DNA of 63,583 nt, filler included. It is 6 parts of 6 records of this genome, joined end to end, with 100 filler letters (N's around TTAATTAATTAA, not from the genome) between each part and the next. Parts side by side here need not be neighbours in the genome. Positions count along the whole stretch, not along the records: positions 26,790 to 46,696 come from SRR31156797_34340; 5 more parts are not named here. The stretch is one strand, 5' to 3'. Shown piece after piece: positions 26,790 to 50,965 of this stretch. Each line of letters starts with the position of its first letter. Position 1 is the first letter of the stretch. The notes under the pieces are model-generated. The model saw nothing but the letters and a program-made list of their open reading frames with translations, made no database searches and was not told where the DNA came from. The position numbers were made by a program, and so were the translations under genes.

Positions 26790-26790
26790 C

Positions 26791-30367: not shown

Positions 30368-30384
30368 CAAATCATCATAGCATC

Positions 30385-30423: not shown

Positions 30424-30456
30424 CATTATCTTTTCAACAAAGGGACAAAAGCGATA

Positions 30457-32490: not shown

Positions 32491-32570
32491 ATAGTCATCC
32501 TTTTATACTTTTAAACTTTGAAAAACCATGTCATACAAAATGATCACGATCAAGCTTTGGAGTACGATTA

Positions 32571-33302
32571 ATGACTCATATTTTGGCATTCGGCGACAGT
32601 TTCTCAGATAATGGATATTGTAACGGCTGCGGATATAACAGACTCAGCAACGGCAAGGTCTGGGTTGAACACCTCGCTCAAATGCTGGGAGCTACTTTGG
32701 AAGACCGCGCGTGGTGCGGAGCAAAATCTGGTCAAGGCAATGCTTCCGGTCCGGAAGACTGGTCTGGTTTGGCCTGGCAAGTTGACACATACACTCCCTC
32801 AAGTTCTGAAAGAGATGTTCTCTGCACAATATTAATAGGCATTAACGATGTGTACGATGGGACAGGCAAAGCGGAAGAAATCGTGGCAAATACGGTCTCA
32901 GCCATGAGCACTCTTGAGGGGAAAGGCGTCAGTCATTTTCTAATTTCCAATATTCCCGATATAACCCTCGCACCAGCATATCGTAAGGAATACGCCCCAC
33001 TCAAAAAGACGGTCCAAGACCTCGTCAAAAATATCAATAGCCAACTCGACATGGCCATTTTAGGTCCACATGGATTTTGTAAACACCACCCCGACACAGC
33101 AGTGTATCCTTTGCTGAACACATACGCCCTCTTCAACGAGCTTGTTACAAGCAAGGAGTTCACAAACACCCGTGAACCCTGGAATGGCACGTATTCAAAT
33201 CCAAACACAACCGGTTATATGTGGTGGGACGACTGGCATCCGATGACTCAAACACACAAAACTCTCGCTCATGCAGCTCTCAAGATGCTTGAAACCGATT
33301 AA
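32571..33302 (+). CDS. SGNH/GDSL family hydrolase
   Basis: FGDSFSD, GIND and DDWHP blocks. Confidence 0.88.
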   Translation: MTHILAFGDSFSDNGYCNGCGYNRLSNGKVWVEHLAQMLGATLEDRAWCGAKSGQGNASGPEDWSGLAWQVDTYTPSSSERDVLCTILIGINDVYDGTGKAEEIVANTVSAMSTLEGKGVSHFLISNIPDITLAPAYRKEYAPLKKTVQDLVKNINSQLDMAILGPHGFCKHHPDTAVYPLLNTYALFNELVTSKEFTNTREPWNGTYSNPNTTGYMWWDDWHPMTQTHKTLAHAALKMLETD

Positions 33303-33447
33303 TATAAAAGATCTTAATCAGAGCCTTTCAATCTCTGTCCGAAAACAAAAATTCTAACATTCTCATTGAGCTTTCTTACTGGGACACAAAAAGGAATCGC
33401 GATTTAAGAAGACTATTTACAATAGCGTTTGCAAAAAGCCACAGGGG

Positions 33448-34425
33448 CTATGGAGCGGAACGATCATCATGCCGTATGGTGCACGGCGTAACGCACTTCT
33501 CTTTCATGTATCCTCCTTCGGGAACATCCAAAAAAGGAGGCAGCTGATGCGCAAAATGTTTCGGAATAAATCGAGATGGGAGACTGCTAACCATGGCTCC
33601 GAACAGAGCAACCACCCCACCCCAAAGAGCCATGCTCGGAGAAGTTTCTCCTAAAACAACATACCCGATGGCAGTGGCCAAAATCGGTATGGCATATTGA
33701 AAAACAACAATTCGAGAAATATTGCTCTTGGAAATACTGTAACACCACAAGGCATAAGGGGCAGCAGTTCCCAAAAAACCAAGATAAAAAGTACTCATAA
33801 GGGCACTTGGAGAAGCATCACCCAACTGTATGATCAAATCCGGCATGTAGACACAAAGTGAAAGGGCCCCGGCTATAAATGTATACGTCACATACTCGAC
33901 AGAGGTATACCTTTTAAGCATCTGTTTTTGAAAAATATTATATACACTATCAAAACATGATGCCATCAAGACAAAGAGGGCTCCTACATTCAAGGTCAGT
34001 CCATCCCCTTCTCCAAACGAGATAATACCGACACCTATCATGCTGATAATGATACCAAAAATATTTCTGCGCGTAATCCTCTCCTTAAGGAAAACTACGG
34101 CCAAAATCGTTGCGATAACCGGCACAGTACTCACAATAAAACTCGTCGACCCAACACTAATACGTTCCGCACCATGTAGAATCGCCAAATTAAACGCGAC
34201 GATACCTATTAAACCATGAAAGAAAAAAGTCGGGATATCTCGTAGTTGTGGCAGGCGAATTTTCTTTATTATTCCGAAAATGACCATACACGTCGCGGCG
34301 ATTGTAACCCGCAAAAGCGCTAAAGGTTCCGGATCAAAACTTGTCAGACTGATACGGAAGGCAACAAAACAACTGCTCCACAACGTAATGGCAAAGCCTA
34401 CAGAAAAGGGTGTACGATCAATCAC
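33448..34425 (-). CDS. DMT/EamA family transporter
   Basis: About 10 TM segments in two repeats; FLKERIT and VLGET motifs. Confidence 0.88.
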   Translation of the reverse strand: MIDRTPFSVGFAITLWSSCFVAFRISLTSFDPEPLALLRVTIAATCMVIFGIIKKIRLPQLRDIPTFFFHGLIGIVAFNLAILHGAERISVGSTSFIVSTVPVIATILAVVFLKERITRRNIFGIIISMIGVGIISFGEGDGLTLNVGALFVLMASCFDSVYNIFQKQMLKRYTSVEYVTYTFIAGALSLCVYMPDLIIQLGDASPSALMSTFYLGFLGTAAPYALWCYSISKSNISRIVVFQYAIPILATAIGYVVLGETSPSMALWGGVVALFGAMVSSLPSRFIPKHFAHQLPPFLDVPEGGYMKEKCVTPCTIRHDDRSAP

Positions 34426-34784
34426 TTATAACACTCATTTATTTAACCAAACTCACCAATATAATATATTGATCTCATAATTCTACTCCAAAAAAGGTTC
34501 TCATTCGGTCGATTGTTCAAGAACTTAACGACTTGATAATCGTGCCACATAAAACAATCGTGATCAATATTTAGATAGCGATTGATAAAATTATTTTTGA
34601 ACTTAATGACAACTATTCTGACAAGTGTCGACAATTGCGGCACAATTGATCGGTAATAGCTAGATATGACAGGAAATTCACGCCGATATACAGCTGTAAA
34701 ATACTCTTTTACAACCCATTAAGCGCCTTTATTGTCGAACAAAAAATGAAACGCCCAGCCCCCCCTCTTCGTCTCCACAAAATC

Positions 34785-34831
34785 CAAGGGCTGTACCTGA
34801 TGCCCTCTCTAGTCATCTGGTACAGCCCTTG
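34785..34831 (-). terminator. Stem-loop downstream of fdh
   Basis: CAAGGGCTGTACC...GGTACAGCCCTTG, 13-bp stem. Confidence 0.55.
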
Positions 34832-34913
34832 CTCAGTAGGCCGTCACCCCATATACTTCGGCCTGTTATGCCCCCTGTCTTGAATATGCTTATGCGTAGA
34901 CAGATTTACGTCT

Positions 34914-37676
34914 TCAACGCGCAGGATAATCAATTCTGACAGAACACGCCTTGTATTCGGCTGTGTCCGAAATCGGATCTGCGGCTGAGTTTGTAAGCCA
35001 GTTCGAGTTGTTTTTGTAAAAATGAAAAGCCATCCAAACCATTCCTCTAGGGACTTCATCCGTCACACGCGCTCGAACGGTAATGGTACCGCGCCTTGAG
35101 GTGAGCTGAATCATTTCCCCTGTCTCAAATCCTAGAATCTTTGCATCTTCAGGCGCAATATCGACTATCTCTTCACTGAGCAATTCGTTGAGGCCAACTG
35201 CGTTGGCCGTCTGCGAACTGCAATTGTAATGATAAAGTCTTCTGCCTGTGCTCAGAATGAAAGGATACTCCTTGTCTGGCGTTTCCGCAGAAGGTGTCCA
35301 ATCAATGGCTTGAAAGTGGGCTTTCCCCTGTTTGAATTTGACGTCACGGAACAAATGAGGCGTATCCTTAAACAAATGAGGAGTGCCGGGGTGCAAGGAA
35401 TGAGGAACCGGCCACTGCAATGATTCATTTTCCAATCGATCATAGGTAATTCCATTCAGCATCGAGCACTGTGGAGCCATTTCATTATCCCAGATATCCT
35501 GAGCACTGGAGGATTCCCAAGTGTCTCCCATCCGCTTTGCCAGTTCACGAAAAATCCACCAATTGGGTCGAGCTTCACCAGGAGGAGGAGAAACCTTACG
35601 AACACGATTTACCCGACGTTCCGTATTGATAAATGTCCCATCATCTTCACTCCAGGCAGCAGATGGAAGGACCACATCCGCATATTCGGTCGTCTTTGTG
35701 GGGAAAATGTCGTTACACACCATAAACTCGGCAGACGAGAGACACCCGTGGACATGGTGCATATCAGGCTCGGTTGTTGCCGGATCTTCACCAAAGACAT
35801 AAAATCCACGGACTTTTTTCGTTTTCAGGCCTTCGAGCATGGCAGGAAGCCGCAATCCCTCATAGCCAAGGAGATTGCCAACATTCCACGCCTTCTGGAA
35901 CTTCTTGCGAGCAGCCGGGTTATGCACCTTCTCATAGCCGGGGAAGGAGTCCGGCAATGCTCCGGCATCACATGCGCCCTGAACATTGTTTTGCCCCCGC
36001 AAGGGGTTAACGCCCCCACCGGGTATACCAATGTTCCCAAGCAACAATTGCAGATTTGCACAGCTGAACACATTATGAACACCAGAGGTATGCTCCGTAA
36101 TACCAAGCGTATATATAAGCATTGCCGGTTTCGATTCAGCTAATAACCGTGCGAGATCGACGACTTGTTCAGCTGGCACTCCAGTGACCTTTTCGGCCTC
36201 CTCGGGAGTGTACCTGAGTACGGTTTCCTCAAGCTCATCAAAACCATCAACCCACTGCTCTACGTAATCTTTGTCATACAGATTTTCCGTGATCAAAACA
36301 TTCATTATGGAGTTGATCAGCGCGACATCAGAGCCTACTTTCAGCCGCAAGTGCATATTCGCCCACTCTGTAAGCTTGGTTGCCCGAGGGTCCACGACAA
36401 CCAGTTTTGCACCTTTTTGCACGGCATTATGCACAAACGTCGCAACCACTGGATGGGCTACGGTCATGTTCGAGCCGATAACGAGTATTGTGCTCGCCTT
36501 TTCGATATCTTCAAAGTTATTGGACATTGCACCGGAACCAAGCATTGTCGTCAGACCGACGACCGATGGAGCGTGTCAGGTTCGTGCGCAATGGTCGATA
36601 TTATTGGTGCCGATGGTTGCCCTGAAAAGCTTCTGCATGTTGTATGAATCTTCGGTAATGCTTCGAGCACAACTCAAACCAGCAATGGCATCCGGCCCGT
36701 ATTCGTCACGAATCTCCATAAATTTGGACGCTACAAGATCGAGAGCCTCGTCCCATGACGCCTCCCTAAATTCTCCATTCTCCTTGATAAGCGGTGCTGT
36801 CAGTCGATTTTTGGAATAGATAAAATCATATCCAAAGCGGCCCTTCACACACAATCGTCCCTTATTGGGCTCAATATTCTCATCGGCTGTGACTTTAATG
36901 ATCTTTTCGTCTTTAACGTGAAGGATCAACTGACAACCAGTCCCGCAATATGGACATGTCGTCTGGACTTTTTTGACTTTTTTTTTGGTTATCCCAAGTG
37001 CTTTCTTGTCGAAAAGAGCCCCAACAGGACACGCTTCAATGCATTGCCCACAATGGGTGCATTTCTCCATGTCAACAGAAGGATGCCACGTTCCATTAAA
37101 AGAATGGCGGGAAATAGCGCTCTGCCCAATGTCCTGACAAGTCGCGATGCATTGACCGCATTTGATACAACGACTGTAATCTCGAGCAATAAACGGAGAA
37201 CGATTGTCAACAACCGGCGTTTCAATTTCCAAGGGAACATCCCTGACAGGCACCTTGTGCTTCCCTGCCATTTTTTGAAGAACACATGCTCCTTTTGCCG
37301 GGCATTCATGATCGTGCCATTCCAAATCCCTGGCTTCAAGATGGCCGGGTGCGCATTTCCCTTCCGGCAGCTTGGCTGTAAAACAGTTGTGCGCCCCAGT
37401 AGAAAAGATGGACGTCAATTTGCTTTTTCGCGCCTCAAAAACTTTGGGAGACTCAGTTGTAATATTCAACCCTTCCACGGCAAGCGTTGTCGATGTAGAT
37501 ATCAACTCTCCCGTATCGACATTCTCGGCGACACTGAGTTCACAACTGTCGTCGCAATAACAGGTCTCGCTTTGGCACAATGTCGGGATGCTGATACCTG
37601 CTTGAGATGCAGCATCCAAAAGCGTCTGATTCTCTCTAAATTCCACTTTCTTATTGTTAATAATAACGTGTCGCAT
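34914..37676 (-). CDS. fdhF: Selenocysteine-containing cytoplasmic formate dehydrogenase alpha subunit (about 920 aa; in-frame UGA at 36576-36578 read as Sec)
   Basis: ORFs 36576-37676 and 34914-36545 are in the same frame, giving DHCART-U-HAPSVVGL; Fe-S motifs CIKCGQCIATC, CTHCGQCIEACP and CPYCGTGC; LRGQNNVQGACD; SECIS present; no Tat signal. Confidence 0.93.
36547..36563 (-). promoter_or_regulatory. Bacterial SECIS element
   Basis: GUCGUC-GGUCU-GACGAC hairpin starting 12 nt after the UGA, like the E. coli fdhF SECIS. Confidence 0.85.
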
Positions 37677-37734
37677 TGGATATCCTTTCTATTATCTGAG
37701 TAAAATTAATCAGTTTTAAACTCTTTGTGCCCGG

Positions 37735-38253
37735 CTAAGACGCATGCTTTTTAAAAGCTGAAAAAAACATTTCCATGCAGTACTTCGAGCAAAAATCGAA
37801 ACTTTCATCGATTCCACCTCCTGCGGGGACCTTGGTGAAACTCTGCGCTTCATCGTCCACAGCGTTGAAACGCCTTCCACACTGATCACAAATTTTTATG
37901 TTGCTTGTAATAAAGGCACTGACACAATTTTCAGAACACAATGGGATGTCCCCTTGAGTCTCACCGTAAATACGCCTGCCACAGACATGACAAAAGACAG
38001 CTTCATCAGGCGCAGAGTTCAAGGCCCCACCGCATAAAGGGCAGAAATTTGAAGGTCTGGATTCCATCGTATGATGGCAGTGCGGACAACTTGAACGCAA
38101 AGCTGTTTTACACTGAGGGCAAACAGAGGGGGCTGTCGAATCTTCCACCTCAATTGAAAAAACATTGAAATACGACGCTGGCTCGTGCTTCGTATTCAAA
38201 TGAGGACAACGAGGGTTAGGGCAATACATATAAGTCGAGTGGTCTTTTTCCAT
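37735..38253 (-). CDS. Cys-rich zinc-ribbon / TRASH-like protein (16 Cys)
   Basis: Eight Cys pairs, including CxxC...LCSENC and CxxC...FCSKYC. Confidence 0.75.
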   Translation of the reverse strand: MEKDHSTYMYCPNPRCPHLNTKHEPASYFNVFSIEVEDSTAPSVCPQCKTALRSSCPHCHHTMESRPSNFCPLCGGALNSAPDEAVFCHVCGRRIYGETQGDIPLCSENCVSAFITSNIKICDQCGRRFNAVDDEAQSFTKVPAGGGIDESFDFCSKYCMEMFFSAFKKHAS

Positions 38254-38282
38254 GGCATAACTAATCTTTCTAAGAGTTGATG

Positions 38283-38323
38283 AAAAAGGCTGGAGGTGAA
38301 TGAGGCGATTAACCTCCAGCCTT
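38283..38323 (-). terminator. Intrinsic terminator or attenuator after the UT-family gene
   Basis: AAGGCTGGAGGT...ACCTCCAGCCTT followed by a T-run on the minus strand. Confidence 0.7.
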
Positions 38324-38390
38324 CATAAAAGCCGATCGATACCTTTGGTGCAGCGAGATGCTGTTCACCCCAAAACTACTTTCTCCAAAG

Positions 38391-39383
38391 CTAAGGGTGT
38401 TTCAGATTGCTTTCGGGCGTACCAAGCATCTCCGCAGGAACCGCGGCTATATGACCAAAACCTTTACTCGCGAACATGAACATCCAGGTGACCATGACAA
38501 ATGGCCACGTCAACGACGGCATACCGATGGGAGCAAGGAGTACACTTATGGATGCCTGGGCTATGGAGCCGACAACCATGCAGAATGTTGCATAGAGAAA
38601 TGTTTTCCAATTGAGGTAATAAAAAAGCCCGCCCAGTGCGATGGCACACAGCACCGAGTTGTAGCCATACAATCCAAGACGAAGCGGCGCTTCAGGAGAC
38701 TGCATAATCAAAGCGGTCAACAGGCCAATTAAAGAGCCAAAAATCGCAAAGAATGCGGATATTCTGGAATTAATGAGAATGGCTATGACAAAAATAATTC
38801 CGGTAACGATGCTGTCCTCGAACATGACTTCGCCTATGCCCTTGGTTACACCTTCCATAAATGTCATAGCTGAGATTTTACCAACCACAATCGAAGTGTG
38901 CGGATCAGGGATTGAAGTTGCCAACAATGTTCCAGCCTCCAGAAGACCAAACTTGGAGGCACAGAACATGAGAATCCAGGTGGCGAAGACAAAAGGGGCT
39001 GTCAGAGCAGGCATGCCCCACTTGCCCAGAAAATTGATAAGCGCACTCATGATAATAGTGCTCAAAGCGGCGTTGATAACCACGTAAAACAATAATTCGG
39101 GGCTACAAATAAAATAAAAAGGCAGTGCGATACCCGCGAGTGTTCCGTTAAATCCGAACAACCCGGCCTTGATAAGACCTTTGTCCGCGCCAAGCGCTAT
39201 GGCCGTCAAAGTTGATGCGGCAGTCCCCAGAACAGCACAAGCACCTAATTCCCATGAATTATAGAATATTCCTATAAAAAATATAAAACCGGTCACGGGG
39301 TTGTTCTGGAACATGACCTGCCCACATCCGCGCAGGCATGCGTCTACAAATTGAAATAGCGGATTGTTTTTTGGCGCTTCCAT
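38391..39383 (-). CDS. UT-family urea/amide channel
   Basis: Duplicated signatures [12 protein letters not shown] / [19 protein letters not shown] / [15 protein letters not shown] / PSLTWPFV. Confidence 0.92.
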
Positions 39384-39423
39384 GATCGTTACATCTCCTT
39401 AAATGGTAATGGGCGGGTGGCGT

Positions 39424-39657
39424 TTATACCGTTTGAGCTTCCAGTTCCTTTTTGAGTTTGTCGCGCTCCTGAGATTTATGCATGGCGCTCATCATGTTTT
39501 TCATCCAATGATCAGCATGACGATACGATGTAAGAGAAATGTATCTGCGCGTATCAGCTGAGCCACAATGAACGCAGGGAATTATCTCATCGCTTGAGTG
39601 AGCAAGTGTCTCAAAATCTGTGTCGCAGCCGTTACAATGCAGTTCATAAATTGGCAT
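39424..39657 (-). CDS. FmdB family zinc-ribbon regulatory protein
   Basis: MPIYELHCNGC...FE...CVHCGS motif. Confidence 0.88.
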   Translation of the reverse strand: MPIYELHCNGCDTDFETLAHSSDEIIPCVHCGSADTRRYISLTSYRHADHWMKNMMSAMHKSQERDKLKKELEAQTV

Positions 39658-39691
39658 AGTCTTCTCCGTGAAAAGGTTGTGGCCTTTTCAT

Positions 39692-39707
39692 TGCGACAAC
39701 CATACCA
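39692..39707 (-). promoter_or_regulatory. Sigma54 (-24/-12) promoter of the fmdB-UT unit
   Basis: TGGTATG-GTTG-TCGCA on the minus strand. Confidence 0.75.
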
Positions 39708-39782
39708 ACTTCAGGAAAATCGGTAACCGTCTGTTTATTAAAAATAAATTTCTAAAATTATGATAATATTCAAAGGGAAGGG

Positions 39783-39883
39783 GTACAATAAAGATTGTTG
39801 TTTTATAGACCCAAAAGAATGAAATGCGAGCCATAAGGGCTGAGGCCTTACAACAAAATCGGTGGCTACAATATAACTTGTAG
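39783..39883. promoter_or_regulatory. Putative enhancer (UAS) array, CTACAA-N6-TTGTAG
   Basis: Perfect copy at 39866-39883, abutting degenerate copy at 39848-39865, single degenerate copy at 39783-39800. Confidence 0.75.
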
Positions 39884-40060
39884 GAGTTGCTTTGCCGTAA
39901 TCAACAACGTGCATTGAACAATCGCAGGAGACGCTTTAGAGGACAAAAAAACGCCAGAGTAACACCACAATAGAGGGGTTACCCTGACGCATAAAAAAAA
40001 ATTCTATTCTTTAAAGGTTAGGCAAAAAGCCTCAATGTTCTCGATGAGGAAGAAGCGTCG

Positions 40061-41494
40061 CTAACTATTCATCTTCTTTAATTTCAGACTCAATGACTGT
40101 TGTGAAATACCGAGTATTCGCGCTGCGGCACTCTGATTCCCGCCCGACCGTTCCATGGCTGTATTTATAAGTGTCGTGGATATCTTTGAGACAACTTCCT
40201 TAAGCGGGGGAAGACTTTCCGGCGGAAAATTCACAGTGTCCCATGAAGCGGTCTCTTCAACATGAGGGACCACTCCCCCAAGTGAATCTTCGCTCTGAAT
40301 ATGATTCTTGAAACTGGCGGAAGACAGCATGCGTGAACAATGCTGGCTCACGGCATCGCTTGCCATGGCTTTCAACTCTCGGACATTCCCGGGGAATGAG
40401 TATGTCCGTAAAAAATTCAGAAGTTCAGGGTGATATGCAGGCTTCTTCTTGCCTTGCTCAGTTGCTTCACATTCCAAGAAATAATCCAAAAGCAGGGAGA
40501 TATCATCAAGCCTTTCGCGCAATGGAGGGAGCGTAACCTGATGGCCGACAAGTCTATAGTAGAGATCTTCCCTGAACTTCCCTTCTTGTTTCAAGGTGGA
40601 CAAATTCTTCAGTGTTGATGTCACGACACGAACATTGGCCTTTTTCGGAAGGTCAGAACCAACCGGGAAATATTCTTGCTCCTGCAACAATCGCAAAAGT
40701 TTCACCTGCGAACTCAGGCTCAGGTCTCCAATTTCATCAAGAAACAGGGTGCCTCCATTGGCCTGCTCGACCAACCCTTTGCGCGCCTTATCTGCGCCGG
40801 TAAATGCCCCACGCACATGACCAAATAAAGAATCCGCAAAAACCGGATCATCAAATGCAGCCACATTCACTGCCACAAATTCTCCGCAGCGCATGCTCAG
40901 ATGATGAATGGCTTGAGCAATCAACTCCTTGCCTGTTCCGGTTTCCCCTGTAATCAAAATGGGATTCTGACTACCAGCCACCGCTTCACAATATTTGAAA
41001 ATAGAAAGCATTTTGGAGTTTTGCGTAAGAATCTTTGAAAACATTTCCGGGTGTTTCAATTTCGTTTCAAGAATTTGTTCACGCAGTCTGGCATTTTCCT
41101 GCTCCATGTCCTTGAATTCAAGAGTACTTCGTACCCGTTTTGCCAGTTCAGTCTTATCTACGGGTTTGAATAGATAATCTCTGGCCCCGTCCCTCATACA
41201 TTGGATCACTGATTTCCCATCGCTGACAGCTGAAACAATAATAATTGGAAGCCATGGATACTTTTCCTTGATCATCTTTAGTAGAGCAGGCCCCCCGATG
41301 TGAGGCATCACCAAATCAAGTAAAACAAGGCTAAATTGTTGTTTTTCCATTAACGACATAACTTTTCTACTGTCTTCACAGGTGATTACATTTGAGTAAC
41401 CAGATGCATACAAAGCTATTTCAAAACTTTGCAACGCTGATTTCTCGTCGTCAACAACAAGAATAGGATGTGAAGGGCACAAATGATTTTCCAT
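40061..41494 (-). CDS. Sigma54-dependent response regulator (NtrC family)
   Basis: Receiver domain, Walker A GETGTGKE, GAFTGA, FPGNVREL, Fis-type HTH. Confidence 0.95.
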   Translation of the reverse strand: MENHLCPSHPILVVDDEKSALQSFEIALYASGYSNVITCEDSRKVMSLMEKQQFSLVLLDLVMPHIGGPALLKMIKEKYPWLPIIIVSAVSDGKSVIQCMRDGARDYLFKPVDKTELAKRVRSTLEFKDMEQENARLREQILETKLKHPEMFSKILTQNSKMLSIFKYCEAVAGSQNPILITGETGTGKELIAQAIHHLSMRCGEFVAVNVAAFDDPVFADSLFGHVRGAFTGADKARKGLVEQANGGTLFLDEIGDLSLSSQVKLLRLLQEQEYFPVGSDLPKKANVRVVTSTLKNLSTLKQEGKFREDLYYRLVGHQVTLPPLRERLDDISLLLDYFLECEATEQGKKKPAYHPELLNFLRTYSFPGNVRELKAMASDAVSQHCSRMLSSASFKNHIQSEDSLGGVVPHVEETASWDTVNFPPESLPPLKEVVSKISTTLINTAMERSGGNQSAAARILGISQQSLSLKLKKMNS

Positions 41495-41522
41495 AACTCA
41501 CCTCATTTACGATCTATTGTAA

Positions 41523-44500
41523 TCAATTGGAGCCTGTGAAAGACAAGGTTACGCATGTTCCTTGCCCCTCTTCTGAATCAATAAAAATATCACCGCCATG
41601 CTCCTTGATAATTCCCGCTGAAACAGACAACCCAAGCCCAGTCCCACCCCACTCTCTTTTTGTCGTATAAAAGGGATCCCTAACGTGCTTAAGGTCTTTC
41701 TTCGAAATACCGATTCCCTGATCTGTTATTTTGAAATAGACCTTTTCTTCTATCGCGTAGGTCTCAATAAGAATGGAATCTTCCCGCGATTTCAACGCTT
41801 GACAGGAATTTTGGATCAAATTGACAAGAACTTGTTCAATCCGACGCAAATCACCTTTGAACGAAGGCAAGCAATCGTTGATACTTATGACAAAGTTGTC
41901 CGTACTATTTTTAATGAGATTGGTAAGCAGCATGTGGGCAGATCTAAAGGCCTTGTTGATATCCACATCACCACCCATCTTGACGGGAGATTGTCTGGAA
42001 TAATCTTTCAAGTTTCGGACGATGGTTGAAACACGATCAGATCCTTCATTAATGCCGAGAAGCAATTTGGGCATGCTTTTCTGCACATAACTCAAGGGCA
42101 AATTTCCAATCCAAACCTCTTCACCCTCTTCATTCTGTTGTCTAAGATATTCCATCATACCTTGCCAGATCTCATCCATTGTCTGAGAATTCAGGCTGAT
42201 GAGATTCAAAGGATTATTGATTTCATGGGCCATGCCAGAAACAAGAATTCCAAGAGATGCCATTTTGTCGGCCTGATGCAAAGATTTGTAGCTCTGTTCC
42301 AATTCCTTGGTCCGCTTCTGGATTTTCCCTTCAAGACTCTCATTCAATTCCTTCAACCGTTGCCTGTTTTCCTTCAACGCTTTATCGGCTTTCTTCTGTC
42401 GATTGATGTCGTTGAGAAGCCAGATGACACCTTGGCTGGGATTGCCGGAATCAATGGCGCTGATGGAGAGTTTGCGCCACTCACTCTCTGTTTGGTTCAT
42501 TTTCAACGGTATTTCGCAATTAAAATGTCTTCCCTGTCTCAGAAAATTTTCAGAATCTCTTTCGATTCTTGAATATAAAGTCTTATCAAGAAAAAGGTCT
42601 TTTGTTGCAATTGGCCTTTTTGTACCTTTTGGAACAAAGCAAATTTCAAGGAATCTATTATTACACCATTTCAATTTTGAATTAACGATAAATGCAATAC
42701 CAATCGTTGCATTCTCCAATATCATTTTTTGTTGTTTACTCGTCTTATTCAGCTTTTCACTGATCCTCTTACGAGCATGGACTTCTTGCTCCAATTCATC
42801 AATTTGAATGGCAAGTTCTTCCTCCACTTCGATTCGCCGTTCTTGAATCAAAGTAAACCACCAAACCCAAACAGCAATAATAAGAAGTGTAAAAATATAT
42901 ATTGTTATGACGTACCATTTAAAGTTGTGCCATATTTGATAATCAGTGTGCTCTGAAAGAAACACACTAGAAGAAAAGACTACACCAAGGACAACAGAAA
43001 TAATGAGATAATGTTGAAGAAATCTTTTCGTTTTCTTCATGAAAGCTTCTTTTGGTGAAGGAGTATACTGCCTTTGCTTCTTTGAACTATTTTCTTCACA
43101 TTTTCCGCCGCACACACTGTCAAGTACACAACACAAAGAACAAATATGGTTATCACGCATGGGGCAATAAACCATTTCACTTTGTCCATATTCTTTTTCA
43201 CAAATTGGACAAGTCATAAGAGCATCACTCTGTAAAATAGTATTTTCTCGGCGAATATAATATTTACCTTTGGTAATAATGGCGACCAAAGGTGCAACGG
43301 TAAATGCAACAGAAAATGCAATTAATGTTGAAAATGATTTCCCATATATTCCAAATGAACCAAAATATGCAGGAATGGCTACAGCAAGTGAAACGACAAG
43401 AGAAATAATACCCACAGGGTTTATATTATAAAGATATGCCCGTTTGTATTCGATAGTTCTTGGGGCAATCTTGAGAGGCTTAATGACAGTTAAATCAGCA
43501 ACAATAGTACCAATCCATGACAATGCAAATATGGCATAGATGAAAAGCATGGAATGCATTGTCTTGAATACCCCCAATTGCGCAAAGAGAATTGACATGA
43601 GGATATTGAACAGAAGCCACACAGCCCTTCCCGGATGGCTTCCTGTTATTCTTGAAAAGAAATTCGACCAAGCGAGAGACCCGGCATAGGCATTTGTCGC
43701 ATTAATTTTTACCTGACATATTACAATATATAGCGTGACTAGCAACAATGCATACTGTGGATTATCAATTACTGTATCAAATACGTTGAGATAAAGCTGA
43801 ACAGTATCAATACTTTCACTGCTCACAATATTTCCCGCCTCTATGAACAAAACAACGAGAAAAGCGCCGCAAAGAATCTTCAAGGCACCGATTATGATCC
43901 ATCCAGGCCCGGCAGTAAGCACAGCCAACCACCACTTATATTTATTTTCATCTGTTTTATCGGGAAGAAAACGCAAATAATCTACCTGTTCACCGATTTG
44001 TGGAATCAATGAAAACAGTACAGAAAGGGCTGAACCGAAGAGAAAGGGATCAAATGAGCCAGTTCCAACATGATTTTCGTATGAAACCCATCGGGTGACA
44101 CTGGTAGGATCTTTAAAAATGATAATAGCTATGGGAACGATCCAAAGAACCAGCCAAAGAAATTGCGTATAGTTATGCAGCTTATTAATGACCGTAATGC
44201 CATAAAATGAAAAAGGGATGATCACCAACGAACAGAGCAGGTATCCAATAGGTAATGGTATCCCAAAGCAAAGAAATACCGCTTGCGCCATGATCGTTGT
44301 TTCAATGGCAAAAAAAATGATCGTAAAGAAGGCGTATATGAGTGAGGTAATTGTGGAGCCGATATACCCGAAACCTGCTCCACGAGTAAGCAAATCGATA
44401 TCAATGTTTTCTTTTGAGGCATGATAGGCAATTGGAATACCGGTGAGAAAGATCACGACTCCCAAGGATAAAATTGCCCAAAGAGAATTGGCAAATCCGT

Positions 44501-44687
44501 AATTTATAATAAGTAATGCACCAATTGCTTCCAAAGCGAGAAATGAAATCCCACCAAGAGCCGTACTAGCTATCTGCCATTCCGGCCACCGCCTGAACGA
44601 CTTGCTTACACGCCGAAGGGAAAAATCTTCAATGGCCGTATTAGTGACTAACAGGTTGTATGTTCGCTGCTGCCTGGATGTATTCAC
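41523..44687 (-). CDS. Sensor histidine kinase with an N-terminal permease-like (NCS1/APC-like) domain, Cys-rich linker and PAS domain
   Basis: About 12-14 TM segments; DIDLLTRGAGFGYIGST, QIGEQVDYLRF, NAYAGSLAWSN; CPIC...CSLCC; H-box AHEINNPL; N and G boxes. Confidence 0.9.
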   Translation of the reverse strand: MNTSRQQRTYNLLVTNTAIEDFSLRRVSKSFRRWPEWQIASTALGGISFLALEAIGALLIINYGFANSLWAILSLGVVIFLTGIPIAYHASKENIDIDLLTRGAGFGYIGSTITSLIYAFFTIIFFAIETTIMAQAVFLCFGIPLPIGYLLCSLVIIPFSFYGITVINKLHNYTQFLWLVLWIVPIAIIIFKDPTSVTRWVSYENHVGTGSFDPFLFGSALSVLFSLIPQIGEQVDYLRFLPDKTDENKYKWWLAVLTAGPGWIIIGALKILCGAFLVVLFIEAGNIVSSESIDTVQLYLNVFDTVIDNPQYALLLVTLYIVICQVKINATNAYAGSLAWSNFFSRITGSHPGRAVWLLFNILMSILFAQLGVFKTMHSMLFIYAIFALSWIGTIVADLTVIKPLKIAPRTIEYKRAYLYNINPVGIISLVVSLAVAIPAYFGSFGIYGKSFSTLIAFSVAFTVAPLVAIITKGKYYIRRENTILQSDALMTCPICEKEYGQSEMVYCPMRDNHICSLCCVLDSVCGGKCEENSSKKQRQYTPSPKEAFMKKTKRFLQHYLIISVVLGVVFSSSVFLSEHTDYQIWHNFKWYVITIYIFTLLIIAVWVWWFTLIQERRIEVEEELAIQIDELEQEVHARKRISEKLNKTSKQQKMILENATIGIAFIVNSKLKWCNNRFLEICFVPKGTKRPIATKDLFLDKTLYSRIERDSENFLRQGRHFNCEIPLKMNQTESEWRKLSISAIDSGNPSQGVIWLLNDINRQKKADKALKENRQRLKELNESLEGKIQKRTKELEQSYKSLHQADKMASLGILVSGMAHEINNPLNLISLNSQTMDEIWQGMMEYLRQQNEEGEEVWIGNLPLSYVQKSMPKLLLGINEGSDRVSTIVRNLKDYSRQSPVKMGGDVDINKAFRSAHMLLTNLIKNSTDNFVISINDCLPSFKGDLRRIEQVLVNLIQNSCQALKSREDSILIETYAIEEKVYFKITDQGIGISKKDLKHVRDPFYTTKREWGGTGLGLSVSAGIIKEHGGDIFIDSEEGQGTCVTLSFTGSN

Positions 44688-45084
44688 AATCTTACCTCAA
44701 TCTTCCTGACAGTCCGAAAACTTCACAGAAAGACTCAAACTTCTTCATTCAATCTCGTACAATCACGAATCCACGTCTTTCATCCGTAAAATATTTCGTC
44801 ATTTTGAAAACCATTTCATATAAAGACGCCTCCTACTTTTCAATCTGACGCGTATCCGCATATGCAAAAGACAGCCCAATGATCTCCATCATAGATTTAA
44901 CGTCATAATTCACACATAATTTCATGGTTTCGCGAGACAAAACACATATTAAATCACCAAAGCTATACCAGAAGCACCTTAAATCATTGATGAAAAAAGA
45001 CTGTTATTCTTAATGTGAATTTTACTTCTTTTCAAGCTCTTCACATAAAAAAAGACTTTCATTTAACGCAACAATCCAGAACCC

Positions 45085-45188
45085 CTACAAGTATCATTGT
45101 AGCTACAATTGTCCTTGTAGCCAAAATGATCGCTTTGCTACGGGGATTTTTAAGAATCACACCCGTACGAGCACCACAATATTTGTAG
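45085..45188. promoter_or_regulatory. Putative enhancer (UAS) array, CTACAA-N6-TTGTAG
   Basis: Two abutting perfect copies at 45085-45102 and 45103-45120, plus a degenerate copy at 45171-45188. Confidence 0.8.
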
Positions 45189-45264
45189 GTTGGGAGTCTC
45201 GAATTATATTAGTTTTCTGGATATAATACTGTTTTTTCAGCGAGTTAAATGCAGAAATAAACGT

Positions 45265-45280
45265 TGGCACGATAATGGCT
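45265..45280 (+). promoter_or_regulatory. Sigma54 (-24/-12) promoter of amiF
   Basis: TGGCACG-ATAA-TGGCT. Confidence 0.75.
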
Positions 45281-45371
45281 CTAAGGCAATGAGCGCTCAA
45301 GAGTTTCTGTATTAAAGATTGCCAATATTCGCGATCTTCATAGCAATTCACTAATTAATTGGAGGTTTTAA

Positions 45372-46376
45372 ATGGGAAGCATCGGCAGCATGAATCGTCC
45401 GACTGAAGGTATGCTCATGGGTTTGGTCCAATACCCTGTGCCCATTGTTAACTCGCGCCGCGACATCGAAGCAAACATCGACAGAATCTGTGAAGCCACA
45501 GTGAATACCAAAGCTGGTTATCCTGGCATGGATCTGATCGTATGGCCTGAATACAGCTCACAGGGCCTGAACACAAAGAAATGGGTCAGCGATGAATTCC
45601 TGCTTGATGTCGAAGGGCCTTTGTTCCAGCGTTACGCTCAGACTTGTAAGGAAAACGATATCTGGGGCCTGTTCTCTCTCATGGAGCGCAATCCCAACAA
45701 AGATCAGATGCCTTACAACACGGCTGTCATCTTCAACAACAAGGGCGAACTTGCCCTGAAATATCGCAAACTGAATCCTTGGGTTCCCATTGAGCCTTGG
45801 ATGCCCGGCGATCTCGGCCAGCCCGTATGCGATGGTCCCGGCGGCAGTAAGCTTTCCGTCTGCATCTGCCATGACGGTATGTTCCCCGAGCAAGCTCGCG
45901 AAGCTGCATACAATGGTTGCAACGTTTACATCCGCATCTCAGGTTACAGCACTCAGGTTAACGACCAGTGGATGCTGACCAACCGTTCCAACGCGTGGCA
46001 GAATCTGATGTACACCGCATCCGTTAACCTTGCCGGTTATGATGGTGTCTTCTATTACTTTGGCGAAGGTCAGGTTTGCAACTTCGACGGCACTACCATC
46101 CAGCAGGGTCATCGTAATCCTTGGGAAATCGTCACTGCTGAGGTTTTCCCGAAGATGGCAGATCAAGCCCGCAAAGACTGGGGCCTGGAAAACAACATTT
46201 ACAACGTCGGTACCCGCGGTTACGTGGCCGTTCCCGGTGGAGTAAAGGAATGCCCTTACACATGGATCAAGGATTTCGCCAAGGGTGAATACAAATTGCC
46301 TTGGGAAGACGACATCAAAATCAAAGACGGTTCCATTTATGGATATCCGACAACCGGTGGACGCTTCGGCCTCTAG
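45372..46376 (+). CDS. amiF: Formamidase (nitrilase superfamily)
   Basis: 334 aa; MGSIGSM start, PEYS (Glu), YRKL (Lys), CICHDG (Cys), [11 protein letters not shown] end; closely resembles Helicobacter AmiF as I recall it; RBS GGAGG. Confidence 0.95.
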
Positions 46377-46501
46377 ACCACACTGAATCCCGTTTGTCTA
46401 AAAAGGATGAGAAATAATTACTCTCACATCCTGAGTAAAAACAAACGAACAACAAATATGGCATAGCTACCAGGTGCATGCAGTCTAGCTGCATCTTGCA
46501 C

Positions 46502-46537
46502 AAACGCCCGCGAATTGGTCTTCGCGGGCGTTTTTTT
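46502..46537 (+). terminator. amiF intrinsic terminator
   Basis: AAACGCCCGCGAA...TTCGCGGGCG-T7. Confidence 0.85.
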
Positions 46538-46598
46538 AAATTCATCCAAATGATGAAAGGACTTCCTTTCCTTTCATCGCAACTCCCCTTTCACTCTC

Positions 46599-46643
46599 AA
46601 AAAAACGGGCCACCCAAGTTTCTCAACTTAAGTGGCCCGTTTT
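46599..46643. terminator. Second terminator-like hairpin, probably for a convergent gene beyond the contig end
   Basis: A7-CGGGCCAC...GTGGCCCG-T4. Confidence 0.6.
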
Positions 46644-46696
46644 CTCAACTTAGGTGTCAGCTTAAACGCACACTATCAAAATACATAAAAATCCCA

Positions 46697-46796
46697 NNNN
46701 NNNNNNNNNNNNNNNNNNNNNNNNNNNNNNNNNNNNNNNNTTAATTAATTAANNNNNNNNNNNNNNNNNNNNNNNNNNNNNNNNNNNNNNNNNNNN
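46697..46796. other. Artificial contig linker
   Basis: N44-TTAATTAATTAA-N44. Confidence 0.99.
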
Positions 46797-46952
46797 ATGA
46801 TGAATTTCAAAAACATTTTCACAAAAGCTTACGAAAATGGATTGAATGAATTCTATGTTGAACTTGAAGGTATTAGAGACGGAAGTATGACTCAATTCGA
46901 AGGAGTTAAAGGTTGTTTCGATTATTTGAATAACTCTTCTTTTGTAAAATAA
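46797..46952 (+). CDS. C-terminal fragment, probably a sugar-phosphate isomerase/epimerase TIM-barrel protein (absent from the ORF track)
   Basis: Reads MMNFKNIFTKAYENGLNEFYVELEG...CFDYLNNSSFVK*; followed by a terminator. Confidence 0.55.
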   Translation: MMNFKNIFTKAYENGLNEFYVELEGIRDGSMTQFEGVKGCFDYLNNSSFVK

Positions 46953-46979
46953 TAGAAGTTTCTTAAGCAATATAAAATT

Positions 46980-47012
46980 ATCAGGTGCTGTTTTCAGTAC
47001 CTGATTTTTTTT
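46980..47012 (+). terminator. Intrinsic terminator
   Basis: ATCAGGTGCTG-TTTT-CAGTACCTGAT followed by a T-run. Confidence 0.8.
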
Positions 47013-47354
47013 ACATATAATCGATGGATGTTTTTAAACCTCAGCATTCAATATTATAAATGTAAATTAAAAAAATGCTACTGTTGTTTAAGATGTGGTT
47101 TTATGTGATTCTGGGGGTTAAATGTAGCTATGGAACTGGGAATTGAATTAGAGAGATATTGAAATGAAAACCGGAATGTAGAAACTTGTTTCGTAATTCT
47201 GGGAAATAGTGGGGTATATGGATTAACCGGATTAAACGAACTTTTTCTAAAATCAATAACAAAATTAAAGTAGTTGGTTTAACCCAAAAAGCAATAATTT
47301 GAGATTAAACTATTTGAATGCGATAAAGTCAAAAAAAGAGCTATAAAATCGGTT

Positions 47355-47789
47355 ATGACTGTAAAAACAAAGATTTTACATTTTTTTAATTGGCTTTCAA
47401 CTACTGAAATGTTTGCAATTCCTTCCAAACAATTTCCGGGGAATTGGATATTATCGGAGTATTATTATGAACCGGAAAATGAATTAATTCACGTAAGCGA
47501 GGAAAAAGTAAAATCTGAAAACATATTCTGGAACCTTGAAATACAGCCCAGCAATATTTTTACTCATAAAACAAATCTCAACATCCCTTTAATTCTAAAA
47601 ATTGATTCCGGAATCTGGAGTATTTCAAAAAACTTTGTCAGTTTTATTCATCCCGATGATTTTAGGAACAATGTTGAATTTCAATTTGCCATTGAAAAGG
47701 GAAGACTTAAATTATTGAAAAAAGACGCTTTGGGGAAAATCGAATTTTTTGGTTTTTTTCAAAAAGTGACTGTTTCGGGTAAAAAATAA
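47355..47789 (+). CDS. Hypothetical protein, lipocalin-like
   Basis: GNW(I)L and G.W motifs in a beta-rich 144-aa protein. Confidence 0.55.
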   Translation: MTVKTKILHFFNWLSTTEMFAIPSKQFPGNWILSEYYYEPENELIHVSEEKVKSENIFWNLEIQPSNIFTHKTNLNIPLILKIDSGIWSISKNFVSFIHPDDFRNNVEFQFAIEKGRLKLLKKDALGKIEFFGFFQKVTVSGKK

Positions 47790-47820
47790 ACCCCACGATT
47801 ATCTCGCGGGGTTCATTTTT
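47789..47820. terminator. Hairpin between convergent genes
   Basis: AACCCCACGA...TCGCGGGGTT. Confidence 0.6.
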
Positions 47821-47838
47821 GATTATACTGTTTTTTTC

Positions 47839-49116
47839 TTAGAATCTTCTGTACATGTTTCGGCCATTTCCAAATCTTGGATTAACCACATTATTAAATA
47901 TGGAGCCAAAAGTGTATGTAATACCAACACTACCATTTATTGTATATTCAGTAGCAAGTTCTTGCAGCTGCAATAAAATATCTGCTTCCGATACATCAAC
48001 AGCCGGTAAAGAAATCTGGTCATTAATTTTAGCAACTCCTCCGAAAATGCTCAATGAAAGTCCTTTAACAATTCTGATATTAACATTACCTTCCAGTTCA
48101 ACTCTGTTCTTTTTGAAGTCATTTAAATAATTTGAACCTTCGAGCGAAATGTTTATTGAACCCCATTTCTCCTGCACCTGGTAGGCAATTTGCATTTGAT
48201 GTTTTGGCAAATTTTCTTCTGTTTTTCCATAAATAGTAACATCGGTATATCTGTTTATTGTGGCTCCTATACCATATAAAAATCTTAATTGATGGTGAGT
48301 AGATTCTGAATAAGGAAATAGGTTGTACTCAATTGAAGGAAAAATTTCTGCCTGAAAATCGTAATTTCTGAAAGTTGAACTTTGTAATTCTGTATTTACA
48401 CCCACAGACCAATGTTCACCCAAACTTTTTACAATTAAATTGTCAATTTGAATTTGTGTTCTGATTCCAGTGTTTTCTTCACCATCAAAGGTGTACTTCG
48501 TTTTGGTGTAGCGATGGTCAAAACCAACTTCAATTTTCCAATCCTCGGTTACTTTATTCACATTTAATGAGTTGTTAAATGTATATTCTTTTAATGTTTC
48601 CTGAATTTGAAATCTTGGTCTGGTTTCTAGCTCGAATACCCAATTGTTCCATTTGTCGCTAACTTCTTCCACTTCTTGTTCACCATTATGGTTTATACTT
48701 ACTTCTCTATAAATCGGAGTTCTTGCAACATAGCGCATCAAACCCATTTTAATCATATTGGTACGGCCTTGTCTTTGGTGTTCCATTGTGTCATCCGGAC
48801 GAGCAGTGTAAACCAAAGTATCAGTAAGTCCATCAAAATTTTCTTGCCCTGTGAAAAAATAAGAATATTCACTTCCTCCACTACCAGTCGATTGCCTTGT
48901 TTCTCTTAAATAAAGTTGCGCCTCTTTCACATCTCTTACATAATTTATGTAAGGAATTTCACGTCGTATATGGTTCATGTCACAAAATTCACAGTCGATA
49001 AATAGTTTTACGGCATTTTTACGCAAACTATCGCTTGGTTCAACAGGAATGTCTTGTGCACGAACCGAAATAAAGGGGATGATAGAAACAAGGATTATAA
49101 AAAATACTTTTCTCAT
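47839..49116 (-). CDS. Hypothetical exported protein, probable outer-membrane beta-barrel
   Basis: Signal peptide; D.WN.WVF followed by amphipathic strands; ends YTFGSIFNNVVNPRF. Confidence 0.7.
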   Translation of the reverse strand: MRKVFFIILVSIIPFISVRAQDIPVEPSDSLRKNAVKLFIDCEFCDMNHIRREIPYINYVRDVKEAQLYLRETRQSTGSGGSEYSYFFTGQENFDGLTDTLVYTARPDDTMEHQRQGRTNMIKMGLMRYVARTPIYREVSINHNGEQEVEEVSDKWNNWVFELETRPRFQIQETLKEYTFNNSLNVNKVTEDWKIEVGFDHRYTKTKYTFDGEENTGIRTQIQIDNLIVKSLGEHWSVGVNTELQSSTFRNYDFQAEIFPSIEYNLFPYSESTHHQLRFLYGIGATINRYTDVTIYGKTEENLPKHQMQIAYQVQEKWGSINISLEGSNYLNDFKKNRVELEGNVNIRIVKGLSLSIFGGVAKINDQISLPAVDVSEADILLQLQELATEYTINGSVGITYTFGSIFNNVVNPRFGNGRNMYRRF

Positions 49117-49218
49117 ACAAATACAGATTTGGTTAATTAGTAATTTATAAAAATTTAAATATAAAAAAGGTTGGACGAGTTCAATGGCTTTTGGTTTAAT
49201 TCAGGTTGTAGTTTTAAT

Positions 49219-50448: not shown

Positions 50449-50580
50449 TTTTTAGTAGTTTTAAAAAAACTGTGGAAAGTACTAAAATAGAACGATTTTC
50501 ACAATGATTATAAGTTACTAAAAATATGTTTAATGAATAATTTTCAGGAATTTAATACTTTAATAAACTGGTATAAGGTA

Positions 50581-50847
50581 CTAACTATTTGTATTTTTAA
50601 TTTCTCTTTTTCTAAACCAGTTTTTCGGATTAAGCCGGTTTTTATATTTAGTAAATAATTCTTTTCCTACCAGCAATCCACCCGACCAAAATACAACTTC
50701 CATTAAAACCAGACTGGTTGTAGATGCAATAACTTTTGTTTTTGTAGGAAGATCGAATAACGGAATTATAAATGTGGCTCCAAAAAATACTCCTGAAAAA
50801 ATCATCAGGAAAATGCCCAGTTTTATTTGCCAGTTTTTTTTCTTCAT
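50581..50847 (-). CDS. Small two-TM protein (transporter suffix domain-like)
   Basis: Two TM segments; EVVFWSGGLLVGKE motif. Confidence 0.7.
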   Translation of the reverse strand: MKKKNWQIKLGIFLMIFSGVFFGATFIIPLFDLPTKTKVIASTTSLVLMEVVFWSGGLLVGKELFTKYKNRLNPKNWFRKREIKNTNS

Positions 50848-50965
50848 TTCGATGTAATTATCTATCAACTAAAACCCAAAACGTACGAAAATGTTTTAAA
50901 ATAAATAATACCTTATTTTACATTTCAGTGTAAATAATATATGTTAAAATATAATATCCGGAGTA

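Follow-up and report, generated by a model that had tools for sequence, protein, structure and literature searches.

A putative two-promoter sigma54 regulon for formamide in a urease-less Pseudodesulfovibrio combines a formamidase, a UT-family channel and a transporter-like sensor kinase

Introduction

Formamide arises from anaerobic histidine fermentation and from cyanide hydration, yet little has been reported on its sensing and use by anaerobes. Here we examine a seven-gene locus around amiF, a formamidase gene, in a sulfate-reducing Pseudodesulfovibrio. The locus occupies positions 34914-46376 of a 63,583-nt stretch of DNA, hereafter the window, in which six records are joined with 100-N filler; the part that holds it, positions 26,790-46,696, is SRR31156797_34340.

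The closest described system is that of Desulfovibrio vulgaris Hildenborough (DvH), in which a two-component NtrC-type sigma54 activator, DVU1156, is likewise placed over an AmiF-type formamidase, its target DVU1164, in a table row labelled "Amide metabolism" (Kazakov 2015, PMC4641369, citing Rajeev 2011). The regulator-to-formamidase core of our cluster is in this sense already published, and a preliminary description of the window, made from the letters alone, was right in recalling an amidase neighbourhood of this kind from D. vulgaris. The published row names the formamidase as the only target; an fmdB-UT operon, an NCS1-fold kinase, a major facilitator superfamily (MFS) transporter and a formate dehydrogenase (FDH) go unmentioned there. 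As described in the relevant part of Rajeev 2011 (PMC3333781), DVU1156 has no Desulfovibrio orthologues and no functional prediction.

A second system is the fmdCABDEF cluster of Methylophilus methylotrophus (Wyborn 1996, Mills 1998, as summarized in PMC10781810), which also unites a formamidase, FmdB and dedicated uptake and is substrate-inducible. Its formamidase is FmdA, of the acetamidase family, whereas the window encodes AmiF; its uptake is by a porin and an ABC system (FmdDEF/Urt-type) rather than a UT channel; and it belongs to an aerobic methylotroph and, in that summary, includes no FDH. Of this cluster only FmdB is common to the window. A third comparison is synthetic. In Corynebacterium glutamicum engineered with AmiF and FDH (PMC10313556, PMC10781810), formamidase-derived formate is likewise cleared by FDH, and engineered AmiF strains are described as needing FDH against formate inhibition (PMC10781810). 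That pairing is aerobic and NAD(P)-dependent, whereas the one in the window is natural and involves a selenocysteine (Sec), Mo- or W-dependent FdhA with an Fe-S extension. A literature search, which did not cover subscription journals or supplementary files, yielded no paper on a natural amiF-fdh operon, on an NCS1-type sensor kinase or on a bacterial UT channel in a formamidase context.

Results

Two sigma54-type promoters share an enhancer layout

Six of the seven genes lie on the minus strand; the seventh, amiF, is a plus-strand gene transcribed divergently from that of the kinase. In order of transcription, the minus-strand genes encode a sensor histidine kinase, an NtrC-type response regulator and, after a 403-nt gap, FmdB, a UT-family channel, a protein with 16 cysteines (16-Cys protein) and FdhA. 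All genes named in the preliminary description were found where it had placed them, and AmiF, the channel and FdhA can be assigned to their families with firm support. As a stand-in genome for the window we used G001, a single 3.7-Mb contig that is 100% complete and 99% identical to the window over 12.7 kb of the locus.

The regulator (477 amino acids; 40061-41494, minus strand) is sigma54-dependent by its domains (Rec PF00072, Sigma54_activat PF00158 and HTH_8 PF02954), and its translation contains GAFTGA; rpoN is present in G001. Sigma54-type -24/-12 promoter motifs were matched upstream of both amiF (TGGCACGATAATGGCT; 45265-45280, plus strand) and fmdB (TGGTATGGTTGTCGCA; 39692-39707, minus strand). 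Upstream of the amiF promoter, two 18-bp palindromes of the form CTACAA-N6-TTGTAG abut each other (45085-45120, with copies starting at 45085 and 45103), and we presume them to be the enhancer, or upstream activating sequence. The enhancer region of fmdB (39783-39883) contains an exact palindrome (39866-39883) with a degenerate copy next to it and, more proximally, the motif ACAA-N6-TTGT (39785-39798). In the window, the palindromes lie approximately 170-185 nt upstream of the sigma54 motifs.

That the two promoters share an enhancer layout had been noticed from the letters alone, and the layout is real rather than a product of chance. The 63.6-kb window contains three copies of CTACAA-N6-TTGTAG, compared to 0.13 expected, and none of 100 shuffles reached three. 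In the whole 3.7 Mb of G001, the exact palindrome occurs at these three sites only. The core ACAA-N6-TTGT occurs five times in the window, four of them at the amiF and fmdB promoter regions.

To place the locus among its relatives, we searched 401 Desulfovibrionales genomes for AmiF and, for each match, examined the 20 kb that flank amiF in either direction. AmiF was found in 12 of these genomes, belonging to 6 of 83 genera. All 12 carry amiF, fmdB, the UT gene, the 16-Cys gene, the kinase gene and the regulator gene together, and in every cluster the regulator gene adjoins the kinase gene on its downstream side. Four genomes of a single genus (G001, G265, G350 and G235) share the window's gene order, in which fdhA follows the 16-Cys gene; we refer to this order as arrangement A. 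Arrangement B runs amiF, an MFS transporter gene, fmdB, UT, 16-Cys, kinase and regulator; it is found in G306, of the same genus, and in G218, G171, G123, G353, G313, G317 and G067. The arrangement-B genomes have the same gene set as the amide system of D. vulgaris Hildenborough. In the clade of the window, by comparison, the order is rearranged, the MFS gene is missing and fdhA has been added.

The regulatory elements are conserved along with the genes. In alignments with three sister species, the promoters and palindromes of amiF and fmdB stand out as conserved islands, and the amiF promoter is invariant in all four arrangement-A species. In arrangement B, a sigma54 promoter precedes both amiF (approximately 100 nt upstream) and fmdB in all eight genomes. 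A site resembling YNACAA-N6-TTGTRG (at most two mismatches) lies approximately 85-95 nt upstream of the sigma54 promoters in several of these genomes, though not before every promoter. On the strength of these motifs, their rarity and their conservation, we are confident that the locus is organized as a predicted sigma54 regulon of the two-promoter type.

Formamide is the likely substrate

AmiF (334 amino acids; 45372-46376, plus strand), a member of the nitrilase superfamily, scored 605 bits on the formamidase equivalog NF009803 (cut-off 406) and only 232 bits on the aliphatic amidase model NF009802, under its cut-off of 427. It aligns with the solved formamidases 2dyu (E 7e-177, over residues 1-333) and 5g3o (E 2e-172). 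E60, K133 and C166, which we take to be the Glu-Lys-Cys triad from the numbering of Helicobacter pylori AmiF, are all present. A strong intrinsic terminator (46502-46533, plus strand; 13-bp stem with 8 G-C pairs, then a T-run) follows the gene.

The second component that bears on the substrate is the UT-family channel (330 amino acids; 38391-39383, minus strand), which we propose as the entry route for formamide. This protein matches PF03253 with 324 bits over model positions 1-291 of 292 and the urea-transporter equivalog TIGR03441 with 287.3 bits (cut-off 274.6). It matches the solved bacterial UTs 3k3f, 3me1 and 3m6e, presumably all the D. vulgaris protein, at E 3e-138. A UT gene is present in all 12 clusters, and the UT proteins of arrangement B are 62-71% identical to that of the window. 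The crystallized bacterial urea transporter, called "DvUT" in PMC3863980, is thus of the same family and near in sequence; it has been studied as a urea channel, whereas its orthologues here are encoded in a formamidase regulon, in a genome that lacks urease. This setting suggests that formamide is the native substrate of the channel. UT-B is described as transporting both formamide and acetamide (PMC3383189).

These similarities raise the alternative that urea, acetamide or some other small amide is the signal and substrate, with the UT protein acting as a urea channel and the kinase as a urea sensor. The score of the channel above the urea-transporter cut-off and its nearness to the crystallized UTs would fit this alternative, as would the induction of the M. 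methylotrophus fmd genes by urea as well as by formamide (PMC10781810). The enzymes point the other way. When the window was translated in all six frames, neither of two urease-alpha peptide motifs was found; the urease-alpha model TIGR01792 had zero matches in the whole of G001, and nothing in that genome scored above the cut-off for urea carboxylase. The absence of urease that the preliminary description had noted for the contig is confirmed, and it extends to the stand-in genome. AmiF is the sole hydrolase in all 12 clusters, and its scores are those of a formamidase rather than an aliphatic amidase. AmiF of H. pylori, moreover, has been reported to be specific for formamide. We therefore consider the urea alternative improbable.

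Physiological data come from DvH, which uses formamide as a nitrogen source (Trotter 2023, PMC10102598). Two published results, as given in these sources, weigh against formamide as the substrate and specific signal: the shared response of the M. methylotrophus genes to formamide and urea, mentioned above, and the behavior of a DvH mutant in the annotated formamidase DVU1164, which had no phenotype on formamide (|fitness| < 0.5; PMC10102598). Ammonia cross-feeding in the pooled assay could explain the missing phenotype. Weighing the enzyme scores and the genomic setting against these points, we regard formamide as the likely substrate of the module.

We also considered that the module mainly detoxifies formamide, formed by cyanide or nitrile hydration or by histidine-fermenting neighbors, with nitrogen and energy as secondary gains. 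Formamide is described as a growth-inhibitory product of histidine and cyanide degradation (PMC10781810), and removal of formate, by FDH or by an MFS transporter, would fit detoxification too. Pure detoxification would hardly call for an entry channel of its own, and the sigma54/NtrC-type control, like the nitrogen-source phenotype of DvH, speaks for nutrition. Among the neighboring genes scanned with Pfam, we noticed neither a cyanide hydratase nor a nitrile hydratase, although no specific search was made. Detoxification as the main role is very improbable in our judgment, and we continue with formamide as a nutrient.

The sensor kinase has a transporter-like membrane domain

The kinase (1054 amino acids; 41523-44687, minus strand) contains HisKA and HATPase_c domains, and its Pfam kinase matches begin only at approximately residue 813. 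For residues 1-560, we found no match in Pfam to E 10 and none among Protein Data Bank sequences to E 1. In order, the protein has a 12-helix NCS1-fold domain at approximately residues 1-475, a block of eight cysteines at residues 493-530, two predicted transmembrane (TM) helices, HisKA and HATPase_c; the 12-helix bundle was seen in an AlphaFold model (pLDDT 78.9, pTM 0.80, from a 27-sequence alignment). When the membrane domain was compared with known structures using Foldseek, CodB and Mhp1 were the top matches (probability 1.0, target TM-score 0.64-0.78, 14-19% identity), and SLC5 proteins ranked below the NCS1 proteins. The resemblance is one of fold alone, as the kinase did not match the NCS1 sequence family (Pfam Transp_cyt_pur). 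The cysteines of the block (C493, C496, C508, C516, C519, C520, C526 and C530) vary little or not at all across phyla; the block was modeled as small strands with low confidence.

Sensors in which a transporter-fold domain is likewise fused to a histidine kinase include CbrA and CrbS/MxtR (SLC5) and Ks-Amt5 (Amt), and in the published descriptions these control catabolism of the compound they sense. The window kinase differs from them in its NCS1 (CodB/Mhp1-like) domain and in a linker made of the 8-Cys block and two extra TM helices. An assignment as an SLC5-type transceptor, similar to CbrA and CrbS/MxtR, was rejected, since no Pfam SSF match was obtained even at E 10. Judging from the structural model, the kinase may nevertheless work in a transceptor-like manner outside the SLC5 transceptor family.

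The kinase belongs to a very large family, whose degree of conservation is unusual. At least 8000 proteins passed E 0.001, and the cyanobacterial members among those listed are 52-57% identical. We confirmed 595 loci in species-representative genomes, which span Cyanobacteria, Myxococcota, Sulfurimonas and Alpha-, Beta- and Gammaproteobacteria; Methylophilaceae loci (L086 and L088) are among those with the same kinase family. The best 80 of the 595 were annotated by clustering their open reading frames (ORFs) and scanning representatives, and genes within 10 kb were counted. ORF clusters without a match (L023:5498, L024:3467, L042:7224, L042:4851, L047:1968 and L049:8453), which are probably opposite-strand ORFs in high-GC DNA, were left out of the counts. 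Urt-type ABC genes were present in 53 of the 80 loci, and an amidase in 36 (FmdA in 24, an AmiE/AmiF-type enzyme in 19, both in 7). Amidase or Urt genes occurred in 58; of the 22 loci with neither, 10 were shorter than 12 kb. A regulator with Rec and LuxR-type domains accompanied the kinase in 51.

A similar link was seen from the side of the formamidase. A homologue of the kinase is encoded in 18 of 36 metagenomic AmiF loci, many of these contigs being near-identical copies; one of the 36, L177, ends 638 nt upstream of amiF and is uninformative. In L191-L208, many of them gut-labeled contigs whose AmiF is 65-66% identical to that of the window, the NCS1-type kinase homologue (40% identity in the membrane domain) and a receiver protein are encoded approximately 7 kb upstream of amiF.

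The broad association of the kinase with non-homologous amidases and with varied output regulators is the main support for its being an amide sensor. Other neighborhoods of the family speak against so specific a role. In a stricter count, 28 of the 80 loci had Urt genes without an amidase, three had a urease-alpha motif, and a Dechloromonas gene table (PMC2907700) also shows the kinase family beside urease. For the family as a whole, the ligand could thus be urea or several amides, and the frequency of UrtABCDE neighbors adds to the case for the urea alternative raised above. We lean, if only by a small degree, toward an amide as the ligand of the window kinase.

FmdB and the 16-Cys protein belong to the amide module

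FmdB (77 amino acids; 39424-39657, minus strand; TIGR02605 and PF09723) is a zinc-ribbon protein encoded in all 12 clusters. The 16-Cys protein (172 amino acids; 37735-38253, minus strand) is a putative multi-zinc-ribbon protein with a Pfam DZR match, whose 16 cysteines form eight C-x2-4-C pairs. Pfam (E <=5) and the ESM Atlas gave weak, generic zinc-ribbon leads, with scores of at most 0.83. The C-x2-C...C-x3-C spacing resembles TRASH/FCS domains to the eye, but this likeness was backed by no model and we do not adopt it. Its gene, too, is present in all 12 clusters (31-89% identity).

In a separate phylum-wide sample of 401 genomes, AmiF was found in G001 and G591 only. G591 belongs to a distant family of the same phylum. 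On its 19-kb contig (L172; G591:C63), within positions 1-3502, amiF lies beside fmdB, a sigma54 activator gene and the 16-Cys gene, which adjoins amiF. The activator has no matching receiver domain (68% coverage), and UT, the NCS1-type kinase and FDH are all absent from this contig. FmdB and the 16-Cys protein thus track AmiF more closely than do the channel or the kinase. The position of the 16-Cys gene in the 12 clusters and in G591 indicates that it is a member of the amide module rather than of the FDH. A role for the 16-Cys protein as electron-transfer partner of the FDH was rejected, as the protein is conserved in eight clusters without fdhA. The module as a whole is rich in zinc-ribbon-like motifs (FmdB, with four cysteines, the 16-Cys protein and the 8-Cys block of the kinase).

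Between the UT and 16-Cys genes we found a terminator- or attenuator-like hairpin (38280-38324, minus strand; 13-bp stem, then a U-run). The hairpin was missed by a standard terminator scan because its loop exceeds 8 nt. It is kept in all four arrangement-A species, with compensatory changes.

A formate dehydrogenase gene has joined the module in one subclade

The last gene of the minus-strand series, fdhA (920 amino acids; 34914-37676), encodes the alpha subunit of a predicted Sec-containing FDH (TIGR01591, 817.5 bits, cut-off 666; PF04879, PF00384 and PF01568 all match). The predicted Sec codon is an in-frame TGA at 36576-36578, in the context ...CART-U-HAPSV..., and all close homologues also have one TGA. 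An N-terminal extension carries 2Fe-2S and 4Fe-4S domains and is FdsA/NuoG-like. The N-terminus, MRHVIINNKK, has no twin-arginine signal, consistent with a cytoplasmic enzyme. Residues 3-915 align with FdsA (6tg9), and the best score was obtained with FdhF of HDCR (7qv7). At and after the UGA lies a SECIS-like element (36523-36581, minus strand) that matches Rfam SECIS_3 (RF01989) with 33.1 bits and E 3.4e-4, below the gathering score of 63; the fold energy of the 66-nt hairpin in this region is no better than that of shuffled sequences (z = +0.91).

The preliminary description had singled out coupling of formamide use to this FDH as the part most likely to be new, and had proposed a synteny survey in Desulfovibrionales. 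Our survey showed that the linkage is not generally conserved. fdhA is present in four of four arrangement-A and none of eight arrangement-B clusters, and all eight arrangement-B genomes lack an FDH within 20 kb of amiF. No FDH was found in the 36 metagenomic AmiF loci either, where seven contigs with AmiF 88-90% identical to ours (L178-L184) show arrangement B as far as they reach. Judging from this distribution, the linkage is best read as a single evolutionary event in one Pseudodesulfovibrio subclade, and fdhA as a recent addition in a few closely related species, in place of a transporter gene of their relatives. The formamide module proper, with its two promoters, AmiF, the UT channel and the transporter-like kinase in a urease-less genome, stands; the FDH coupling does not hold in the general form first put forward.

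The transporter gene that fdhA replaces shows the mirror-image distribution, being present in all eight arrangement-B clusters, directly after amiF, and in none of the four of arrangement A, whose genomes have only an MFS paralogue elsewhere (31-33% identical). The transporter is of the OFA/MCT type. It scored 416 bits on the SfMCT monocarboxylate (L-lactate) equivalog (cut-off 320) and also matched the oxalate/formate antiporter family, below the cut-off. The exact complementarity of the two genes fits a shared need for formate disposal, and we find it plausible that fdhA took over this task from a monocarboxylate transporter.

How fdhA might be expressed is less direct. Neither the palindrome nor a sigma54 promoter lies directly upstream of the gene. 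With the hairpin 3' of the UT gene and no promoter elements of its own, fdhA would depend on read-through transcription that starts at the fmdB promoter. In the window, the hairpin is approximately 35 nt from the 16-Cys start codon, and the 16-Cys stop codon is 58 nt from the start of fdhA; the latter gap measures 58-61 nt in all four arrangement-A species, with no terminator predicted there. Given these short gaps, read-through would be the simplest route to fdhA expression.

Four observations weigh against a working link between fdhA and the formamide module. The conserved hairpin could stop the induced transcript ahead of the 16-Cys gene and fdhA. The ORFs neighboring fdhA include no partner subunit (FdsBG NuoE/F-like, HycB-like or ForE-like) and no acceptor. 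The four FdhA proteins are 86-100% identical and represent one event, and their conservation therefore gives little independent support. Finally, the NCBIfam name of the replaced MFS protein is that of an L-lactate transporter, not a formate transporter.

An alternative is that fdhA is a passenger of the rearrangement in which the MFS gene was lost and the genes for kinase and regulator changed place, and that it is used apart from formamide, for example in general cytoplasmic formate or CO2 metabolism. Its confinement to one subclade (four of 12 genomes, none of the 36 metagenomic loci and not in G591), the hairpin and the missing promoter elements would all be expected of a passenger. So would the settings of its nearest relatives. 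FdhA is 86-100% identical among the four arrangement-A genomes, and the next-best homologues in the order are 52-58% identical stand-alone proteins of other Desulfovibrionaceae with the same Fe-S extension, encoded in the unrelated context of groEL and a gene for a 946-amino-acid protein; NuoE/F-like genes were not found around three loci of these homologues. On the other side, the gaps of approximately 35 and 58 nt leave little room for a separate promoter, and the exact MFS/fdhA complementarity is what functional replacement predicts. Moreover, three periplasmic-type Sec FDH alpha genes above the TIGR01553 cut-off are already present in each of G001, G306 and G171, so that an extra cytoplasmic enzyme at this position suggests a local role. 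We consider a pure passenger unlikely. Functional and regulatory coupling of fdhA to the formamide module is the better of the two readings, but we hold it tentatively, at somewhat less than an even chance.

Features beside the locus

Synteny with G001 ends approximately 290 nt after amiF, near window position 46667, which is close to the end of the SRR31156797_34340 part at 46,696. At 46598-46697, approximately 100 nt match G001 C1:2325541-2325631 with 89% identity, partly in both orientations. The match may represent a short repeat located where synteny breaks off; a tRNA was ruled out. The region 46400-52000 includes at least 5 kb of low G+C content (0.31-0.39). It encodes the [FeFe]-hydrogenase maturase HydF (49219-50448) and three ORFs without a family, of 88, 144 (weakly lipocalin-like) and 425 amino acids. 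Since G001 lacks a DNA-level counterpart of this region, we read it as a strain-specific segment.

On the other side of the locus, a DUF997 small membrane protein gene is followed by a sodium:solute symporter gene (SSF, 329 bits) at 28421-30367, forming a PanF/ActP-like pair. The pair lies upstream of a gene for an MCP chemoreceptor (30457-32490) and is unrelated to the amide module.

Discussion

Our analysis points to a local sigma54 regulon, with two promoters, for the use of formamide and perhaps of further amides of very small size. In the model we propose, the NCS1-fold domain of the kinase most likely binds the amide, making the protein a "transceptor", and the kinase would phosphorylate the NtrC-type regulator. 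Bound to CTACAA-N6-TTGTAG, the regulator would switch on amiF and fmdB-UT, with the 16-Cys gene and fdhA expressed by read-through. Formamide would enter through the UT channel, and AmiF would convert it to formate and ammonia, with the ammonia, as a source of nitrogen, being the chief gain. The formate would then have to be removed. Most relatives would do so with the MFS transporter encoded next to amiF, presumably by export to periplasmic formate dehydrogenases. In the Pseudodesulfovibrio subclade, the cytoplasmic Sec-FdhA replaces this transporter and would oxidize formate in place, passing electrons to an acceptor that we infer rather than see encoded beside it. As a whole, we judge this model reasonably probable, slightly less so than its substrate taken alone. 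The FDH linkage within it is narrow, stems from a single event and is not to be generalized.

The more general leads are the NCS1-fold kinase family and the formamidase setting of a structurally characterized UT channel. A bolder reading would join these leads to the FDH. The kinase family would then be an unstudied, cross-phylum group of transceptors for formamide, short-chain amides and urea, switching on three non-homologous kinds of target (AmiF, FmdA/AmiE and Urt-type uptake) through output regulators that differ between groups, sigma54 NtrC-type here and LuxR-type in Proteobacteria. The UT channels of urease-less sulfate reducers, the crystallized archetype included, would natively be formamide channels, and the Pseudodesulfovibrio clade would have converted a module for scavenging nitrogen into one that also supplies a cytoplasmic Sec-FDH, using formamide both as a nitrogen source and as an electron donor for sulfate respiration. 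We put this forward as a possibility that is less likely than the local model by a clear step.

For sulfate reducers, the locus offers a genetically testable model that spans sensor, regulator, channel, amidase and formate disposal. The exchange of an MFS transporter for an FDH amounts to a natural experiment on cytoplasmic formate, the same problem that metabolic engineers met in AmiF strains. For the protein families involved, the locus provides a probable ligand class for a very large family of transporter-fold kinases. It also suggests that a bacterial urea channel that serves as a structural model for kidney urea transporters natively works on formamide.

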